A stretch of 64,000 nt of DNA from the sequence record MT446408.1, one strand, 5' to 3'. The notes below the pieces were generated by a model. That model ran no database searches. It had not been told where the DNA came from and was given only the letters and a program-made list of their open reading frames with translations. Position numbers and translations under genes: made by a program. This document shows, in pieces, positions 197 to 56,612 of this stretch. Within the stretch, counting starts at the first letter, position 1. Every line of letters begins with the position of its first letter. This DNA is from Escherichia virus TH35.

Positions 197-1065
197 GTAT
201 CAAAAATAACCAAATCTTAAACGTATTCGACCTTGACGGAACTCTGTTTGATGACCGTTGGCGCTTAGACCGCATCAAGGTGGCAGGTCCGTTGTCAGAC
301 TATGATGATTATCACAGCGGTATTGGTTATGATCAGTTCTATCCTCACATTGCATCAGCAGTAGAGTCGGCATCTCTTCGCGGTGAGGCGGTTGAATATT
401 GGACTGCAAGGCCAGAAAAATACAGACAAGTGACTTTTGAACGTCTGGACAATGTTTTTCCTTTTGATGAATTTACAATCAAGATGAGAGACTATGGCGA
501 CAAACGTCCATCAACTATTATGAAATCTGCATGGCTATCGCACGCTTTGCGGCACGGCGATTATCGAATCATCAATGTATTCGACGACCGACAAGACGTA
601 CTCGCGCGGATGCAAGATGAAGCATTGTGTTATAATTCCGTTGCTCAAAATAAAATCGCTTTTACATTTAATCTTTGCAAGGCAGGTGAAGTGGTGCAAC
701 AATTAGCAATTGATCCAAGCGCAACAGGGCAAGAAGAGACTAAGTCTGTGGAAGTTGAACAATCTCCGGCAACTGCCGCCGATATTCTTGATGCAATGGC
801 AGCAACCTTCCGTGAGCGCAACGCTGTCTATGGCGATAACGCTGTGATGGTAGGTCAGGTTATGCAAGTGCTTTTCCCTAATGGCGTGACGTTGAAAACG
901 CCGGAAGACTACCACATGTGGCATCTGTTCGAGCTTAAGATTGTCAAGCTTACACGCTTCGCAATCAGCGGCCTGAAGCACGAAGACTCTATACACGATG
1001 ATGGTGTTTACAGCGCCATGTGTGAACGTCTTGTTAACACCCATAATATTAATTTCAATAAATAG
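193..1065 (+). CDS. HAD-superfamily phosphatase-like protein with an uncharacterised C-terminal domain
   Basis: ORF track 290 aa; N-terminal FDLDGTLF motif typical of HAD phosphatases; C-terminal domain function unknown. Confidence 0.55.
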   Translation: MSIKNNQILNVFDLDGTLFDDRWRLDRIKVAGPLSDYDDYHSGIGYDQFYPHIASAVESASLRGEAVEYWTARPEKYRQVTFERLDNVFPFDEFTIKMRDYGDKRPSTIMKSAWLSHALRHGDYRIINVFDDRQDVLARMQDEALCYNSVAQNKIAFTFNLCKAGEVVQQLAIDPSATGQEETKSVEVEQSPATAADILDAMAATFRERNAVYGDNAVMVGQVMQVLFPNGVTLKTPEDYHMWHLFELKIVKLTRFAISGLKHEDSIHDDGVYSAMCERLVNTHNINFNK

Positions 1066-1094
1066 TTTACTTGTGCGTTTCGATGAGTTATCTT
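1066..1094 (+). promoter_or_regulatory. Sigma70-like promoter (TTTACT-N17-TATCTT) overlapped by inverted repeat CGATGAG/CTCATCG
   Basis: Hexamers and spacing read from sequence upstream of 1130 ATG; shares about 50 bp of similarity with element at 7996-8040. Confidence 0.4.
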
Positions 1095-1129
1095 TATCTC
1101 ATCGAAACGAAGTCCAAAAGGATAAATAA

Positions 1130-1813
1130 ATGAAAAAAGTAATTGTTGTAACTGGCTGCAATTCCGGTCTTGGTAAATCCATTTTTGACACCCTTGGCGC
1201 TTACGGTCATGAAGTTGTCGGTATTGATTTGGAGAACGGCTATGACATCCGTAACGCGAAACAGATGAAAGAGCTTCTCTCTCAATACGACGTAGAAGGC
1301 TTGATCAACTGCGCTGGCGTCAACTCCAACAACTGGTTCGAAGATGTTAACTACGAAGAGTTCAATCGCGTTATGCACACCAACGCCTTCTCTTTCGTCA
1401 ACACGACTCAGGCCGCGCTGAAAAGTCTTATTGACAACAAAGGTTTTGTGATCAACATCGTTTCCAACGCTGCGCATATTCCTATGACGTCCAGCTTGTG
1501 TTATAATGCTTCCAAGGCTGCTGCGCTCATGATTAGCAAGCAGATGGCTCACGAGCTTACGCCTAAATACGGGATCACGGTGTTCTCTATTAGTCCTAAC
1601 AAGCTACGTGGTACTGGCATGTCCAAACAGATTGAAGATGCTGTTTGCGCGACTCGCGACTGGACTCCTGAGTATGCTGCTGAATACCAGAAAAAGGCGT
1701 TGATGAATGGATTGGAGACTGAGCCGCAAGTAATTGCTGACTTCATTCGACATATCTTAATTACGGGCGCATGGCGCTTTATGTCTGGTACTGATATTCC
1801 ATTTGGGAAATAA
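1130..1813 (+). CDS. Short-chain dehydrogenase/reductase (SDR) family oxidoreductase
   Basis: ORF track 227 aa; Rossmann motif VTGCNSGLGK and catalytic YNASK (YxxxK); RBS AAGGA upstream. Confidence 0.8.
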   Translation: MKKVIVVTGCNSGLGKSIFDTLGAYGHEVVGIDLENGYDIRNAKQMKELLSQYDVEGLINCAGVNSNNWFEDVNYEEFNRVMHTNAFSFVNTTQAALKSLIDNKGFVINIVSNAAHIPMTSSLCYNASKAAALMISKQMAHELTPKYGITVFSISPNKLRGTGMSKQIEDAVCATRDWTPEYAAEYQKKALMNGLETEPQVIADFIRHILITGAWRFMSGTDIPFGK

Positions 1814-6053: not shown

Positions 6054-6462
6054 CCGTGAGCAGAAATACATATTCGTGCCTTTAAAGAAGCATTCAGAGT
6101 CAGTATTGAAGCTTCAACGAATCGAGTCGATGACTGGTGATGGCGTGCCGGACGTAATCGGCACCAACCGGAAAGGGCGCGGCTTTTGGCTTGAAATGAA
6201 GTTCTTTGAATCGTGGCCTGCAAGGGCCACCACTGCACCTTTCAGAAATGCATTTGAGAAAGGTCAATGCAGCTTTCTTTCTTCGTGGAATGATTGGAAA
6301 TACCCATCATTTGTTCTGCTTAAGGTTGATTCTGAGAAGATGTTTTATTTAGTCCACCCTTCTATTGAATTAAAGCGTTATAATACTGCAGACGTTCAAC
6401 GTGAGATAATCGTGAAGGGAACTATTCATCACATCATCAAGTATTTAGAGGAATTGTCGTGA
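6040..6462 (+). CDS. VRR-NUC domain nuclease (PD-(D/E)xK fold)
   Basis: ORF track 140 aa; GVPDVIG ... GFWLEMK motif arrangement. Confidence 0.7.
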   Translation: MATNNREQKYIFVPLKKHSESVLKLQRIESMTGDGVPDVIGTNRKGRGFWLEMKFFESWPARATTAPFRNAFEKGQCSFLSSWNDWKYPSFVLLKVDSEKMFYLVHPSIELKRYNTADVQREIIVKGTIHHIIKYLEELS

Positions 6463-7982
6463 AAACACAAGGAATGCGCCACCAATTATTGGCGCTTGAT
6501 AAAGCAGGCCGCAGAAAATACTTTGCTTATTTCATGGAGCAGGGTCTTGGCAAAACCTGGACCGCTTTGGCAGAGTTTGAAAAGCATTTTACCGCTGGCG
6601 CATTTGATGCCATGGTTGTAATCGCTCCTAACGGTGTACACTCAAACTGGATTCGTCGTGAAGCACCAGAGCACCTTTCCATTAAATGGATTGGTCATTA
6701 CTGGCGCGGCAATGACAAAATGAAAACTAAAAAGGGCAAGGCGCTTTGGGAGAAGATGTTTGCTGATCACTATCCTGAAGGCGAAGTGCCTGCACGAATC
6801 TTCTCATTCAACATTGACACGGTGAACACGCCAGTCGGTTATCAACACATTGAGTCCGTACTGAAGAAGTACCGCTGTTTGATGATCATTGATGAATCGA
6901 CGCGTATCAAAAATAACACAGCCAAACGCTCCATCAAGGTTGTGGAATTGGGACGGCTGGCAAAGGCCCGTCGAATCCTTTCCGGTACGCCGCTGCCGCG
7001 CTCGCCTGCTGATATTTACATGCAGTATCACTTCCTTGAAGCTGGCTTGCTTGGCACAAAATCGTTCCGTGCATTCAACTCTGAATTTACAGTCCTGCTT
7101 GAAGCGCACGACCCAGAGATGCAGGCCATTCTCAAGAAAATCGGCGGCAACGGTTATGGCATTCCGCAAGTGCCGCGCAAAGACCATTTTGGCCGACCGA
7201 TGTACAAAAACCTTGACAAGCTTATCCGGCTGATGGAACCGCACTATTTTCGTGCGACAAAAGCGGAATACTTGCCGGACCTTCCAGAGAAGGTGTACAA
7301 GTTTATTGACTTCGAGTTGTCGCCTAAACAACGCGATGTTTACGATGAACTCAAGAATGAGTACAACTATCTGATGGAGTACAAAGGCGAAGAAGAAAAC
7401 GTTAAGTTTGAGATGATCGCATCTCGCACTAAGATGAAGCAGGTGACATCAGGCTTTGTTAAGGTGTATGATGAGATGGTCTACATGGAAGACAACCCAC
7501 GATTCACGGCCTTTAAGGACTATGTGGAAGGGGTGCTGGAAGACGACCCAGAGCGCAAATTCATTGTTTGGGCCATCTTTAAGGAAGAGATGAACCAGAT
7601 TAAGGACTGGCTTGAGTCTGAAGGCGTGGTCACTGGTGTATATAACGGTGAAACATCAAAAGAGCAGCGCGAGTTCTTGATTGATGACTTCCAGAAGAAC
7701 ACAGTTGAGAACGGTGGAACGCAAGTCTTAGTTTGTCACGCTGCAGCGGCAGGCATCGGAATCACGCTTACCGCCGCCGACTTGGCAATCTATTATTCTT
7801 GCAACTATGACAACGAGTTGCGCAAGCAATCCGAAGACCGAAATCACCGCATCGGCACCAAATCAAGCGTGTTGTATGTTGATTTTATTGGGGTTGATAC
7901 CATCGACGAAGAAATTCAGCGTTCATTGAGTATGAAGTCTATGCTTGCTGATCACATCCTCGACGGCAAAAAGATGAATTAA
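6459..7982 (+). CDS. SNF2-family helicase
   Basis: ORF track 507 aa; motif I GLGKT, motif II IIDESTRIKN, motif VI QSEDRNHRIG. Confidence 0.85.
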   Translation: MKTQGMRHQLLALDKAGRRKYFAYFMEQGLGKTWTALAEFEKHFTAGAFDAMVVIAPNGVHSNWIRREAPEHLSIKWIGHYWRGNDKMKTKKGKALWEKMFADHYPEGEVPARIFSFNIDTVNTPVGYQHIESVLKKYRCLMIIDESTRIKNNTAKRSIKVVELGRLAKARRILSGTPLPRSPADIYMQYHFLEAGLLGTKSFRAFNSEFTVLLEAHDPEMQAILKKIGGNGYGIPQVPRKDHFGRPMYKNLDKLIRLMEPHYFRATKAEYLPDLPEKVYKFIDFELSPKQRDVYDELKNEYNYLMEYKGEEENVKFEMIASRTKMKQVTSGFVKVYDEMVYMEDNPRFTAFKDYVEGVLEDDPERKFIVWAIFKEEMNQIKDWLESEGVVTGVYNGETSKEQREFLIDDFQKNTVENGGTQVLVCHAAAAGIGITLTAADLAIYYSCNYDNELRKQSEDRNHRIGTKSSVLYVDFIGVDTIDEEIQRSLSMKSMLADHILDGKKMN

Positions 7983-7995
7983 TATCAAAAATAAT

Positions 7996-8024
7996 TTGAC
8001 TTGTCACGGAAGATGAGTCATAAT
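7996..8024 (+). promoter_or_regulatory. Sigma70-like promoter (TTGACT-N17-CATAAT) with downstream GATGAG...CATCGAAACGAA box
   Basis: Read from sequence upstream of 8057 ATG. Confidence 0.5.
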
Positions 8025-8056
8025 TACTTCATCGAAACGAAACAGAGGAATACAAA

Positions 8057-8320
8057 ATGGTACGCATCCTTGAACGTTACAAAAATGAAGCTACTGGCGC
8101 AATCGCTTTCAAACGTCTTTTGGTCAAAGAAATTGACGGAATGTTTCGCATTGTTAAAGAGTTTGATTATGGCAACGGTGCTGGGGTGAATACCGTTATC
8201 ATGCCTGGCATCAAGGCGTATAAAACCTTAAAAGGCGCTGAGAAGGCTTTGTCGGCTTGGAAACCTGAACGTTATCAAATGACCCGTGTTGAAGGGCTAA
8301 TGCAAGAAGGTAAAATATGA
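8057..8320 (+). CDS. Hypothetical protein (87 aa)
   Basis: ORF track; RBS GAGGAA upstream; preferred over overlapping 8001-8189 ORF which covers the promoter. Confidence 0.6.
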   Translation: MVRILERYKNEATGAIAFKRLLVKEIDGMFRIVKEFDYGNGAGVNTVIMPGIKAYKTLKGAEKALSAWKPERYQMTRVEGLMQEGKI

Positions 8321-34564: not shown

Positions 34565-34835
34565 TAGTGTGATACGGATGATACGGATAAAATGAGGCGT
34601 ATTTTTATCCGTATCGGTGTATAAGCCGCGCTATCACTGGTGTGCTACGGATGATACGGATGATACGGATACTTTTCATATATAAGAGTTTATAAAAAAA
34701 AATAAAATTAAATTAGATATATAATTTTAAATTAATTTATTTGAATTCCTATAAAGTATCGCGGCAACGCGTATCATCCGTATCATCCGTAAGATTCTTT
34801 TGAAAACAACTACTTACTTGATACGGATGATACGT
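34565..34835. repeat. Iteron-like array of GATACGGAT 9-mers (both orientations) flanking a ~70-bp AT-rich core
   Basis: About 9 copies read directly; 21-mer ATCCGTATCATCCGTAAGATT is shared with 50974-50994. Confidence 0.6.
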
Positions 34836-39183: not shown

Positions 39184-39345
39184 TGTTAACGCCACCTGAC
39201 AGTGAAAGGGAATCAATCTATATTATAAATATTCATGTGTTTGTAAGCAAATGATATGTATGGTGATCATAAATAGTTCATAAAATATTTTGCTTTTGTA
39301 TCATTTTGAGTTATATTTTAGTTAACCAAACGAAAGGAGATTGAA

Positions 39346-39762
39346 ATGAGCACAACAATTGTATTTGTCGTCTTGAATAAAGGCGAAGTCGTTAACGTAT
39401 GTGAATATGAAGAACTGGCAAAGGCCACTGCTGCGCGATACGAAGGTGCTATTATTGACCCGTGGATTTTAGATGCGCGCAACGTCTTGCAGGCGACTTT
39501 GGATGAGTGGTTGTTGGGCCGCAAGGTCTATCCAGTAGACAACATCGACTCAATTCAAGGTGAAACAGTATACTTTGAAGATGAATGCGTTCGCGGAATC
39601 GGCAAATTTATGGGATTGTGCCCATCTTCATCCAAAAATAAATTCTATCGTATTCAAGTTGAAGAAAACGATATGTTTGATAAAGTCACGCGCTCGATTG
39701 TTCCTGGCGGCGGAACTCCAATCTTTATGGCAGAATCAGACATCAAGGGGATTATCAAATGA
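39346..39762 (+). CDS. Hypothetical protein (138 aa), opposite strand to flanking structural genes
   Basis: ORF track; RBS AAGGAGA upstream. Confidence 0.6.
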   Translation: MSTTIVFVVLNKGEVVNVCEYEELAKATAARYEGAIIDPWILDARNVLQATLDEWLLGRKVYPVDNIDSIQGETVYFEDECVRGIGKFMGLCPSSSKNKFYRIQVEENDMFDKVTRSIVPGGGTPIFMAESDIKGIIK

Positions 39763-45480: not shown

Positions 45481-45487
45481 TTCACTC

Positions 45488-45512
45488 AAGGCGCTGAAAA
45501 GCGCCTTTACTT
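45488..45512 (+). terminator. Rho-independent terminator (weak T-run)
   Basis: GGCGC-TGAAAA-GCGCC hairpin after fiber gene stop. Confidence 0.45.
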
Positions 45513-45561
45513 TATGCGCAATTAAGTTATACTCATTATACGTTAACAAGTGAGGTGATTT

Positions 45562-47747: not shown

Positions 47748-48038
47748 TTATAAGGAGACAATTTTAAAATAAGTTACTTCGCCGCCGAGTTGCGGTACAG
47801 CGATATATTCGCCGCCGATTTCGGTAATCGTATAAACGAAGCCGTTAATCGTTACGCGATAGGATACGATGTCCTCGTCGCGATACTTGTAAAGGTCGAG
47901 GAAGTTGATCGGCTCATAAATAGACTCGATAATCGCGTCGACGTTAGAGAGATAAACGCTCTCTAAGGTTTCGCCAAATACGTTAGAGTTTTCGGAAGTT
48001 TCGACGCGAGCGGAACGGATAGCGGCTAAAGTAATCAT
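47748..48038 (-). CDS. Acidic small protein, paralog A (96 aa, net charge about -10)
   Basis: ORF track; RBS AGGAG; own promoter; similar to 48146-48448 and 48674-48958. Confidence 0.65.
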   Translation of the reverse strand: MITLAAIRSARVETSENSNVFGETLESVYLSNVDAIIESIYEPINFLDLYKYRDEDIVSYRVTINGFVYTITEIGGEYIAVPQLGGEVTYFKIVSL

Positions 48039-48105
48039 AATAATCTCCTAGTTGGTCGGGCGGGTAGCGACCTATTCGCTACCTCATCCCCTCTCGATAT
48101 AAAAC

Positions 48106-48134
48106 ATTATAGTATTAGTGTACGAAGAAGTAAA
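48106..48134 (-). promoter_or_regulatory. Sigma70-like promoter TTTACT-N17-TATAAT with upstream CGAAAAAGTGC element
   Basis: Read on - strand; near-identical to promoter at 48577-48604. Confidence 0.6.
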
Positions 48135-48145
48135 GCACTTTTTCG

Positions 48146-48504: not shown

Positions 48505-48532
48505 AGTATACGCGAGTGTACGAAGAAGTAAA
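48505..48532 (-). promoter_or_regulatory. Sigma70-like promoter TTTACT-N16-TATACT
   Basis: Read on - strand upstream of paralog B. Confidence 0.5.
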
Positions 48533-48576
48533 GAAAAAAGATAAAATAATTTATCTCATTTTTATCGAAAAAGTGC

Positions 48577-48604
48577 TTTACTTTTTTCTACACTATATTA
48601 TAAT
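48577..48604 (+). promoter_or_regulatory. Sigma70-like promoter TTTACT-N16/17-TATAAT with upstream CGAAAAAGTGC element
   Basis: Read on + strand upstream of paralog C; about 60-nt leader to ATG. Confidence 0.6.
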
Positions 48605-48673
48605 GTACTCATATCGGGACGGGATGAGTTAACGAATAGGTCGTTAACGCCCGTCGAGAACTAGGAGTTTAAA

Positions 48674-48958
48674 ATGGCTATTCTTAACGTTTCTTCCATC
48701 CGTAACGCTATCGTCGAGAACTACGGCGTAAAACAAATTTTATCCGAAGTCTACGCCGCGAACGTAGACCAAACTATCGAGGCAGGTGGGGTAACGGTCG
48801 CCGAGGCTTTTAAACTTTACGCGGCGCTACCGGAATCGGACCGCGAAGCCTTCGAAGTAAACGTTAACGGATACTTCTTCGAAGCGGTCGAAATCGGTAA
48901 CACCTTACTCGTTATGGGCGAAGAAGAATTTGAGACCTTCTCCCTCGTCGAAGCGTAA
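48674..48958 (+). CDS. Acidic small protein, paralog C (94 aa, net charge about -12)
   Basis: ORF track; RBS AGGAG; own promoter and terminator. Confidence 0.65.
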   Translation: MAILNVSSIRNAIVENYGVKQILSEVYAANVDQTIEAGGVTVAEAFKLYAALPESDREAFEVNVNGYFFEAVEIGNTLLVMGEEEFETFSLVEA

Positions 48959-50714: not shown

Positions 50715-51130
50715 GTTTGATACGTATAAAAGAAATCCATCCCTTTCGCCGCTTGTTATGCAAATCAATGACTTAGCCGCTGCTGGCTGGTTTAAGCGTA
50801 TCATGACGTATCATCCGTATTGCCGCAAGTCTTTGTTTTTACTTATATCTTACGGATAATACGTATAAATATAAGTTTAGTATAAGTATGAGGATATGAA
50901 AAAAATTAATTTAAATGTTTTTAAAATGGAGTTTATTTATTTTTGGAGTTTTATATATAACGATGCCCAGTTTTATCCGTATCATCCGTAAGATTAATGT
51001 ACAAGCCAGGCGCGGCAAGGGCTGTACACTGATACGGATAAAAAAACATGACGTATCATGACGTAAGGGTGTACCACTTTGGAAAAGAGGAATCCAGGAA
51101 CGGTGCGGCCTGCAGCCATGATACGCTTAA
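50715..51130. repeat. Second iteron-like array (GATACGGAT and GTATCATGACGTA repeats) flanking a ~90-bp AT-rich core
   Basis: Read directly; shares 21-mer ATCCGTATCATCCGTAAGATT with 34774-34794. Confidence 0.6.
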
Positions 51131-56527: not shown

Positions 56528-56612
56528 GATTCACCTCACTTGTTAGTCTTGATGAAAAGAGTATAAGTATTGATAAAAGAAAAGGCAAGCATTTAGCTCA
56601 CCTTTTTGATAT

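Follow-up and report, generated by a model that had tools for sequence, protein, structure and literature searches.

Two probable promoter, stem-loop and leader cassettes of Escherichia virus TH35 share a start-site box with unrelated phages

We analysed a stretch of 64,000 nucleotides (nt) of Escherichia virus TH35 (record MT446408.1; hereafter the window), in which an initial annotation had pointed to two look-alike intergenic elements. The first 8.4 kb, which contains both, is 94–96% identical to Bas98, FEC19, WFC, vB_Eco4M-7 and other phages of Wifcevirus, a genus of E. coli myoviruses for which our literature search found no promoter studies. The first element (copy 1) is flanked by genes for a polynucleotide kinase/phosphatase and a dehydrogenase, and the second (copy 2) by genes for a helicase and a protein of 87 amino acids (aa). 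The sequences and coordinates given for them earlier were correct. The genes and features of the two loci are as follows.

193–1065: polynucleotide kinase/phosphatase gene, upstream of copy 1.
1046–1065, plus strand: AT-rich upstream block of copy 1 (-55 to -36, UP-element-like), 13/20 identical to that of copy 2 in the same register.
1066–1071, plus strand: -35 hexamer TTTACT of copy 1 (extended form TTTACTTGT, 1066–1074).
1076–1090, plus strand: left arm of the copy 1 palindrome, CGTTTCGATGAGTTA, including GATGAGT (1082–1088).
1089–1094, plus strand: -10 hexamer TATCTT of copy 1, at the palindrome centre and at 17-bp spacing from the -35.
1095–1109, plus strand: right arm of the palindrome, TATCTCATCGAAACG (inverted-repeat search; 15 nt, 93% complementary).
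1099–1111, plus strand: start-site/initial-transcribed box TCATCGAAACGAA of copy 1, predicted +1 at A1101.
1118–1132, plus strand: Shine-Dalgarno sequence AAGGA (1118–1122) and ATG (1130) of the dehydrogenase gene.
1130–1813, plus strand: FabG-like short-chain dehydrogenase gene, downstream of copy 1 (Pfam adh_short, 1e-31).
6459–7982: SNF2-type helicase gene, upstream of copy 2 (TAA stop, 7980–7982).
7976–7995, plus strand: AT-rich upstream block of copy 2, spanning the helicase stop codon.
7996–8001, plus strand: -35 hexamer TTGACT of copy 2 (extended form TTGACTTGT; promoter scan 10/12, 17-bp spacer).
7997–8020, plus strand: hairpin of copy 2, TGACTTGTC (7997–8005) with GATGAGTCA (8012–8020), 9 pairs including 2 G-U and a 6-nt loop.
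8019–8024, plus strand: -10 hexamer CATAAT of copy 2, the commonest -10 of the start-box family in other phages.
8029–8041, plus strand: start-site/initial-transcribed box TCATCGAAACGAA of copy 2, predicted +1 at A8031.
8045–8320, plus strand: Shine-Dalgarno sequence GAGGA (8045–8049) and the gene that follows it.
8057–8320, plus strand: 87-aa gene of unknown function, downstream of copy 2 (phrog_27467; no Pfam family).

The likeness between the two copies, reported previously over about 50 bp, is real and extends further. In an ungapped alignment, with the offset constant at 6930, positions 1046–1111 and 7976–8041 agree at 46 of 66. Three of 200,000 draws of random 66-mers reached this value, which equals the expected count of draws pairing a segment with itself (i=j), and we infer that no two distinct segments did so. 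Ranked among all 870 comparisons of the 30 intergenic gaps, the pair of gaps holding copies 1 and 2 was sixth, with a score of 35 against a background of 27–28. Identity is very uneven along the alignment: it is 13/20 in the AT-rich block, 8/9 in TTKACTTGT, 0/7 in the 5' part of the spacer, 7/7 in GATGAGT, 3/6 in the -10 hexamer, 13/13 in TCATCGAAACGAA and 6/18 in the remaining leader.

Both copies carry a TTKACT -35, a 17-bp spacer, a -10, a predicted A start and a Shine-Dalgarno sequence with ATG, which supports the proposal of two related promoters, and their hexamers and spacing mark them as putative host sigma-70 promoters. Copy 1 (TTTACT-17-TATCTT) has 8/12 consensus matches, versus 9/12 in its relatives, since all seven of those examined have TATATT; the TATCTT of TH35, which differs at position 1092 in the loop of the hairpin described below, is thus the weaker variant. 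The AT-rich block of copy 1 extends over the final codons of the kinase/phosphatase gene, including its TAG stop, a coding context different from that of copy 2. The -35 form TTTACTT recurs at several other likely promoters of the window and in Pseudomonas phage PB1, and TTKACTTGT occurs five times in the window against 1.5 expected. In both copies a CA dinucleotide places the predicted A start (A1101, A8031) 7 nt past the -10, and a purine-rich leader of 26–29 nt with Shine-Dalgarno sequence and ATG follows. An extended -10 (TGn) reading of GATGAGT was discarded: its TG is out of register and the G at -14 alone fits.

The signature of this promoter family is the start-site box. In both copies, the C of its 11-nt core, CATCGAAACGA, follows the -10 hexamer at exactly 5 nt, and the form TCATCGAAACGA begins 4 nt after that hexamer. 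Among 58 distinct instances from outside Wifcevirus, 46 have a -10-like hexamer (at least 4/6 of TATAAT) ending exactly 5 nt before the box C, whereas the distance from box to Shine-Dalgarno sequence ranges from 1 to 25 nt or the latter is absent. The box therefore belongs to the promoter and not to the ribosome-binding site. In the IMG/VR database, the pattern ATAAT-N5-CATCGAAACGA was found at 120 loci or more and, among the matches listed, 81 of 113 distinct contexts had a Shine-Dalgarno sequence and start codon within 40 nt; the N6 spacing gave 52 loci (12/43 with such a gene start) and the N4 spacing 11 (2/10). In 185,579 bacterial genomes the N5 pattern was scattered over unrelated taxa, in a number close to the ~277 that we estimated by hand from the database size to occur by chance, and only 20 of 118 matches listed (17%) preceded a gene start. 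Taken together, these counts make the element phage-associated. The same near-chance count led us to reject a host origin, as did the E. coli genomes: their only matches are 24 nt long, 95.8% identical and in unannotated DNA, including that of the cloning strains DH5alpha and DH10B, and we take them to be phi80 remnants. The genes behind box promoters are small, with a median of 74 aa and 77 of 97 not exceeding 100 aa.

The box recurs at early-gene promoters of many unrelated phages that infect Proteobacteria. The T1-like phage haarsle has at least six promoter units in which TCATCGAAACGA is present with two mismatches at most, plus two further diverged variants; each unit has the box 4 nt past (C/T)ATAAT, preceded by a G/C hairpin and an upstream box, ATAGCACTTTTTGTTAAAA, which is the published 21-nt T1-like repeat. 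There, the start box marks the small-gene promoters at the genome ends, while the remaining promoters with the 21-nt repeat are without it. A blastn search with the copy 2 region showed its -10-to-ATG stretch to be 87–91% identical to those of haarsle and of LHE71, also T1-like. The box also lies directly past the -10 in Slopekvirus Miro, a T4-type Klebsiella phage, and the record of Krischvirus GEC-3S contains annotated promoters with the start box CATAAT-N5-CATCGA(A/C)AAC. PB1, a distant Wifcevirus relative, has two box promoters within 1 kb (TTTACTT-N16-CATAAT-CTCT-TCATCGAAACG, segment positions 166–195 and 497–526), each before a small early gene and with the same TTTACTT -35 as copy 1. 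Many uncultured phages combine the box with a canonical TTGACA -35. The promoter type is probably old in the Pbunavirus/Wifcevirus lineage and probably works in Pseudomonas too. Sigma-70-like promoters of the PB1-like phage 14-1, which may or may not include a box-bearing one, are active in E. coli as well as in P. aeruginosa (PMC10914365). The variants CATCGACAAC, CAACGAAAC and CACCGAAAC are tolerated. A full-text literature search with the box and the T1 repeat as strings retrieved unrelated primers only and no paper mentioning the box, which appears to be undescribed as a cross-family element.

We built a profile of this promoter family from non-Wifcevirus members only. Copy 2 scored 32.3 bits, copy 1 19.6 bits and the copy 1 equivalents of the relatives 25.0–25.6 bits, all above the best match in 30 shuffles (13.2 bits). 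No other site passed, either in the window or, in the relatives, within the 7.3 kb that precede copy 1 and include a part of the genome outside the window. A segment at 39306–39348, with the layout TGAGT-TATATT-N-...AACGAAAGGAG-ATG, scored 7 bits, below threshold; it lies upstream of gene 39346–39762 in a bidirectional AT-rich promoter region. Rfam covariance models gave no match at gathering score anywhere in the window. Readings of the box as a site for CRP, IHF, Fis or OmpR, or as a sigma-dependent pause, were dropped for poor matches to the consensus sequences.

The second feature of these promoters is a predicted stem-loop, which the two copies build in different ways. In copy 1, CGATGAG (1081–1087) and CTCATCG (1098–1104) do form the 7-bp inverted repeat with 10-bp spacer across the -10 that had been described, but the repeat is longer than that, with 12 bp of perfect pairing and 15-nt arms at 93%, and ranks among the five longest close-range inverted repeats of the 64 kb. 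As RNA, it is predicted to fold into a hairpin of 12+2 bp that spans the -10, at -18.7 kcal/mol (z -5.8) or, when the entire intergenic RNA is folded, -22.2; as DNA it reaches -12.7 kcal/mol (z -5.9). The stem is followed by GAAGUCCAAAAGG, with no U-tract, and unlike a terminator it does not combine a G/C-rich stem with such a tract; the terminator scan of the window did not list it. Cleavage by RNase III is unlikely, the stem of 12–15 bp being shorter than typical substrates. The palindrome is a private feature of copy 1, since a complement of the box (at least 7 nt, no more than 55 nt upstream) was found in only one of 130 family promoters outside Wifcevirus, against about two by chance; a search of IMG/VR with the copy 1-specific leader gave no match. 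Copy 2 does not form a comparable palindrome, contrary to the earlier proposal: just 6 of 15 positions are symmetric about the centre defined by copy 1, with only GATGA/TCATC kept, and the pairing GATGAG/TTCATC is not favoured (-5.3 kcal/mol, z -0.8). It has instead its own hairpin, upstream of the start site, which is predicted to be stable as RNA (-10.0 kcal/mol, z -3.6, none of 200 shuffles as stable) and weak as DNA (-3.1, z -1.6), so that its stability is RNA-specific. GATGAGT is thus a hairpin arm in both copies, its partner being the box in copy 1 and, with the heptamer as 3' arm, the -35 region in copy 2.

Across the seven Wifcevirus relatives examined, both copies hardly vary. Copy 1 changes at positions 1092 and 1097, both unpaired in its hairpin, and in the length of the leader A-run; copy 2 changes at 8007 (C or T; G in one IMG/VR contig), which lies in the hairpin loop, and at 8043 and 8052 in the leader. 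A more distant comparison came from Serratia phage Spe5P4 (Myosmarvirus), whose helicase is 55% identical. It has sigma-70-type promoters at both syntenic positions, and the one after the helicase gene has a hairpin of unrelated sequence bridging -35 and -10 (-12.9, z -3.5). Its hairpin before the dehydrogenase gene is weak (z -1.0).

Altogether, we consider it probable that both copies are composite cassettes of sigma-70 promoter, stem-loop and leader, similar to the PeSLs (promoter-early stem-loops) of T4-type phages. In RB49 and phi1, a PeSL starts with an AT-rich block that holds the stop codon of the upstream gene; a strong sigma-70 promoter follows, with a stem-loop that overlaps the -10 or lies between it and the -35, then a Shine-Dalgarno sequence with the start of a small gene of unknown function, and recombination takes place at these units (PMC2839356, Arbiol et al. 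2010; PMC4122927, Comeau et al. 2014). On the basis of sequence, both Wifcevirus copies have this composite architecture, with the AT-rich block at the upstream stop, the promoter, a predicted stem-loop that overlaps the -10 in copy 1 or precedes it in copy 2, and the Shine-Dalgarno sequence with start codon; copy 2 adjoins a gene insertion relative to Spe5P4, and the units may, like PeSLs, occupy joints of gene insertion and deletion. Moreover, the promoters of GEC-3S, a member of the genus where PeSLs were defined, bear the same start box. The differences are that Wifcevirus, related to Pbunavirus rather than to T4, has two copies only, outside any hyperplastic region, and that the stems contain A/U pairs, are not G/C-rich and lack a U-tract; the comparison is one of sequence.

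In such a cassette, the AT-rich block, the TTKACT -35, the 17-bp spacer with the GATGAGT stem-loop arm and the -10 would be followed, exactly 4 nt on, by TCATCGAAACGA and a short purine-rich leader with Shine-Dalgarno sequence and start codon. The A of TCATCGAAACGA would be the transcription start and the box the first ~10 nt of the RNA, which would fix the start at a defined A and make the initial transcript purine-rich, possibly favouring efficient initiation and escape. Given that the cassettes' own transcripts would begin downstream of the left arms, the stem-loops could form only in read-through RNA from the upstream operon, where they may insulate neighbouring transcription units from each other or stabilise the RNA at their junction. 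Phages might also use the conserved sequence itself as a recombination joint when small genes are exchanged.

Several points weigh against this interpretation. Promoter activity, start site and timing, as well as the roles of box and hairpin, are deduced for all Wifcevirus from the anatomy, distribution, spacing and predicted folding of the units. Neither hairpin is followed by a U-tract or listed by the terminator scan of the window, which makes doubtful a terminator function such as was demonstrated for PeSL stem-loops. Each genome has two cassettes, whereas RB49-like phages have dozens of PeSLs. Shared ancestry, and not selection, could account for the 7/7 identity of GATGAGT, and divergence within the genus is too low for a real covariation test. 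Finally, the 11-nt initial transcript is more conserved than the -10, beyond what a generic need for a purine-rich, unstructured 5' end would ask for, so that the box may have a sequence-specific reader.

We also compared other known systems. The 21-nt repeat of T1-like phages (Drexlerviridae), aaATAGCACnnnTTGnTAAAA, has a function that the paper on phage TLS lists as an open question (PMC11447400). The succession of -10, N4, TCATCGAAACGA and Shine-Dalgarno sequence has identical spacing in copy 2 and in the haarsle and LHE71 units, and the cargo gene of copy 2 is common to the T1-like phage MM01. However, T1-like units consist of the 21-nt repeat and a G/C hairpin, usually with no -35 at the right distance, whereas the Wifcevirus copies have a canonical -35 and a 17-bp spacer. 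In haarsle, most of the 17 copies of aaATAGCACnnnTTGnTAAAA have a -10-like hexamer ~19 nt downstream, often across a G/C hairpin, about half of these then carry the CATCGAAACGA box, and the same repeat-plus-box unit exists in Miro (segment 3960–4660). The 21-nt repeat thus resembles the upstream portion of promoter units that have no normal -35.

A lambdoid match is the pL promoter of phi80 (TTGACC-N17-TTTAAT-TACTCC-ATCGAAACGAAACA), whose -10-proximal region and initial transcript are identical to copy 2 at 23 of 24 positions. It differs in that CI operators lie upstream of and over the -10, ending there and excluding the box, and in that nutL, not a gene start, follows the box. The T7 A1 promoter has a TTGACTT -35 and is known to start at position 498, with ATCGAGAGGG, a sequence that we confirmed; that this promoter starts with ATCGA fits our start assignment for the box, although only these first 5 nt match. 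In the T5 promoters N25, P25 and P26, described by Gentz and Bujard in 1985 and by Kammerer et al. in 1986, the first ~20 transcribed nt are reportedly conserved and said to affect late steps of initiation; their downstream region has a different sequence from the box.

The strongest rival, though we consider it less likely than not, is that some conserved host component recognises the box specifically, as a signal that marks the transcripts of immediate-early small genes for special handling. The reader could be RNA polymerase during initial transcription, an RNase or a protein binding the RNA 5' end AUCGAAACGA, and in copy 1 read-through RNA would conceal the box within the hairpin. The degree of conservation argues for such a signal, with 11 consecutive positions more conserved than the -10 and the same sequence shared by phages of Escherichia, Klebsiella and Pseudomonas that belong to at least six unrelated lineages, as do the small size of the downstream genes and, in haarsle, the restriction of the box to small-gene promoters at the genome ends among those with the 21-nt repeat. 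On the other hand, no such factor is known, the tolerated variants show some latitude, and the ATCGA start of the strong T7 A1 promoter fits a general initiation optimum. Spread by recombination together with concerted evolution could also preserve the sequence without any reader.

A more elaborate version, which we find rather doubtful, would add a switch: unrelated phages (T1-like, T4-type, lambdoid phi80-like, PB1/Wifcevirus and many uncultured ones) would have converged on, or exchanged, the 11-nt CATCGAAACGA as a host-read signal for immediate-early small-gene transcripts, and in copy 1 the palindrome would enable read-through RNA or extruded DNA to mask the box, switching between two forms of transcript.

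It is unlikely that the resemblance reflects nothing but paralogy or gene conversion of one ancestral promoter, with the shared blocks being generic promoter parts passed down from it and the copy 1 palindrome an accidental inverted duplication devoid of any role. Simple descent would account for there being only two copies, in identical order and register, and for a palindrome unique to copy 1 among at least 130 family members, while the low divergence of the genus means that invariance proves little. Nevertheless, similarity is distributed in blocks (from 0/7 in the 5' spacer to 13/13 in the box) and not uniformly as in a recent duplication, and the box keeps its spacing across phage families that otherwise share no DNA. 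By our own estimate, a perfect 12-bp repeat within 20 nt is expected only ~0.08 times per 64 kb. In addition, hairpins sit at the same promoter positions in a relative with ~55% protein identity.

The repressor operator put forward in the initial annotation now seems improbable. In that scheme, a dimeric phage protein bound to GATGAG-N10-CTCATC over the -10 would repress both promoters jointly. Copy 1 does have a strong palindrome, whose centre coincides with the -10 and which is stable as DNA too, both of its arms are invariant in the genus, and GATGAGT is identical in the two copies within an otherwise diverged spacer. However, the dyad is not common to both copies, with the symmetry and repeat pairing of copy 2 as poor as described above. 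Searching the window for GATGAG-N10-CTCATC with up to two mismatches recovered both known sites and one chance-level match, but no third site; the flanking genome of the relatives added none, and GATGAGT stands beside a -10 only at these two sites in the window. The right half-site is explained by the start box, which in other phages stands without a left arm at 129 of 130 promoters; the CI operators annotated at phi80 pL do not include this box either. The geometry is also unusual: 6-bp half-sites 16 bp apart, centre to centre, would face opposite sides of the helix, and the 12–15-bp arms of copy 1 are longer than operator half-sites usually are. No DNA-binding domain or regulator was detected by Pfam and PHROGs scans of six neighbouring proteins, including that of the 87-aa gene. 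Lambda-type overlaps of operator and promoter (OR/OL, LexA boxes) resemble copy 1 in having a palindrome over the -10, but in Wifcevirus copy 2 shares no dyad, there are no repeated operators and the neighbouring proteins scanned include no candidate repressor, and the arm length and spacing of copy 1 are atypical for them. Of the earlier interpretation, the sequence evidence supports the two related promoters but not the repressor operator; some protein may still bind the sites.

Elsewhere in the window, the 11-nt iteron ACGGATGATAC forms clusters at 34574–34833 and 50808–50989, in both orientations and around very AT-rich DNA. Eleven copies with at most one mismatch were found against 0.7 expected, and the two regions align inverted with a score of 101. 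The clusters, which look more operator-like than copies 1 and 2, could be replication origins or arrays of sites bound by a phage protein. A link between the iteron and GATGAGT was unconvincing, only the GATGA core being common.

We can practically dismiss a divergent antisense promoter, in which the palindrome would mirror the -10 and box of copy 1 and drive minus-strand transcription into the 3'-terminal part of the kinase/phosphatase gene. On the minus strand, FEC19 and Mansfield do score 12.4 bits against the profile, and WFC and vB_Eco4M-7 reach 18.0, but the window has only 9.0 bits, below the shuffle maximum; the mirrored -10 (TAAAGA or TAAATA) is without the critical final T, no acceptable -35 could be read in the sequence and no minus-strand gene exists at the locus.

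The gene behind copy 2 carries its own trace of exchange. Its product has 70% aa identity to that of a gene of MM01 that has the same leader, and the gene is also present in Seuratvirus CAjan (~80% nt identity), without that leader; it lies at 8057–8320 in the window, at 1540–1806 of the MM01 segment (Drexlerviridae) and at 707–970 of the Seuratvirus segment. In Spe5P4, from which it is absent, the post-helicase promoter stands directly before a homologue (40% identity) of the DUF7307 gene, while in Wifcevirus the 87-aa gene is located between that promoter and the DUF7307 gene, that is, as an insertion relative to Spe5P4. By these comparisons, it is a small gene that moves between unrelated coliphages.

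Two other pairs of regulatory regions were apparent in the window. A divergent promoter pair (48039–48145, minus strand; 48506–48673, plus strand) has the form AAAAAGTGCTTTACTT...TATAAT and 65-nt leaders ~85% identical to each other. Their hairpin shows a compensatory stem change (GGTAGCG/CGCTACC versus GTTAACG/CGTTAAC) around a conserved loop, AATAGGT, and matches no Rfam family. These leaders are possible regulatory 5' untranslated regions of genes 47748–48038 (minus strand) and 48674–48958 (plus strand). The second, a pair of related intergenic regions (45481–45561, plus strand; 56528–56612, minus strand; score 40), has a TATACT -10 and the leader ACAAGTGAGGTGA; at 45481–45561, a terminator hairpin, GGCGCTGAAAAGCGCC-TTTACTTT, has a U-tract that also serves as the -35, which makes the unit a terminator/promoter composite.

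These results offer a first, sequence-based picture of how Wifcevirus drives two units of its replication region, one with a moron-like dehydrogenase gene and the other with an 87-aa gene swapped with T1-like phages. The cassette is of a known kind, and the box across phage families appears to be the new element: it makes up the downstream half of those T1-like units in which the upstream 21-nt repeat was left as a published open question (PMC11447400), and it is also part of the RB49-type PeSL promoters. Generic explanations account fully for everything except its strict 11-nt conservation among unrelated phages. If the box has no function of its own, it would be a marker of the recombination-driven spread of regulatory cassettes between phage families. 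If its function is specific, it would represent a compact, portable determinant of strong early expression, of use in phage annotation and promoter design.

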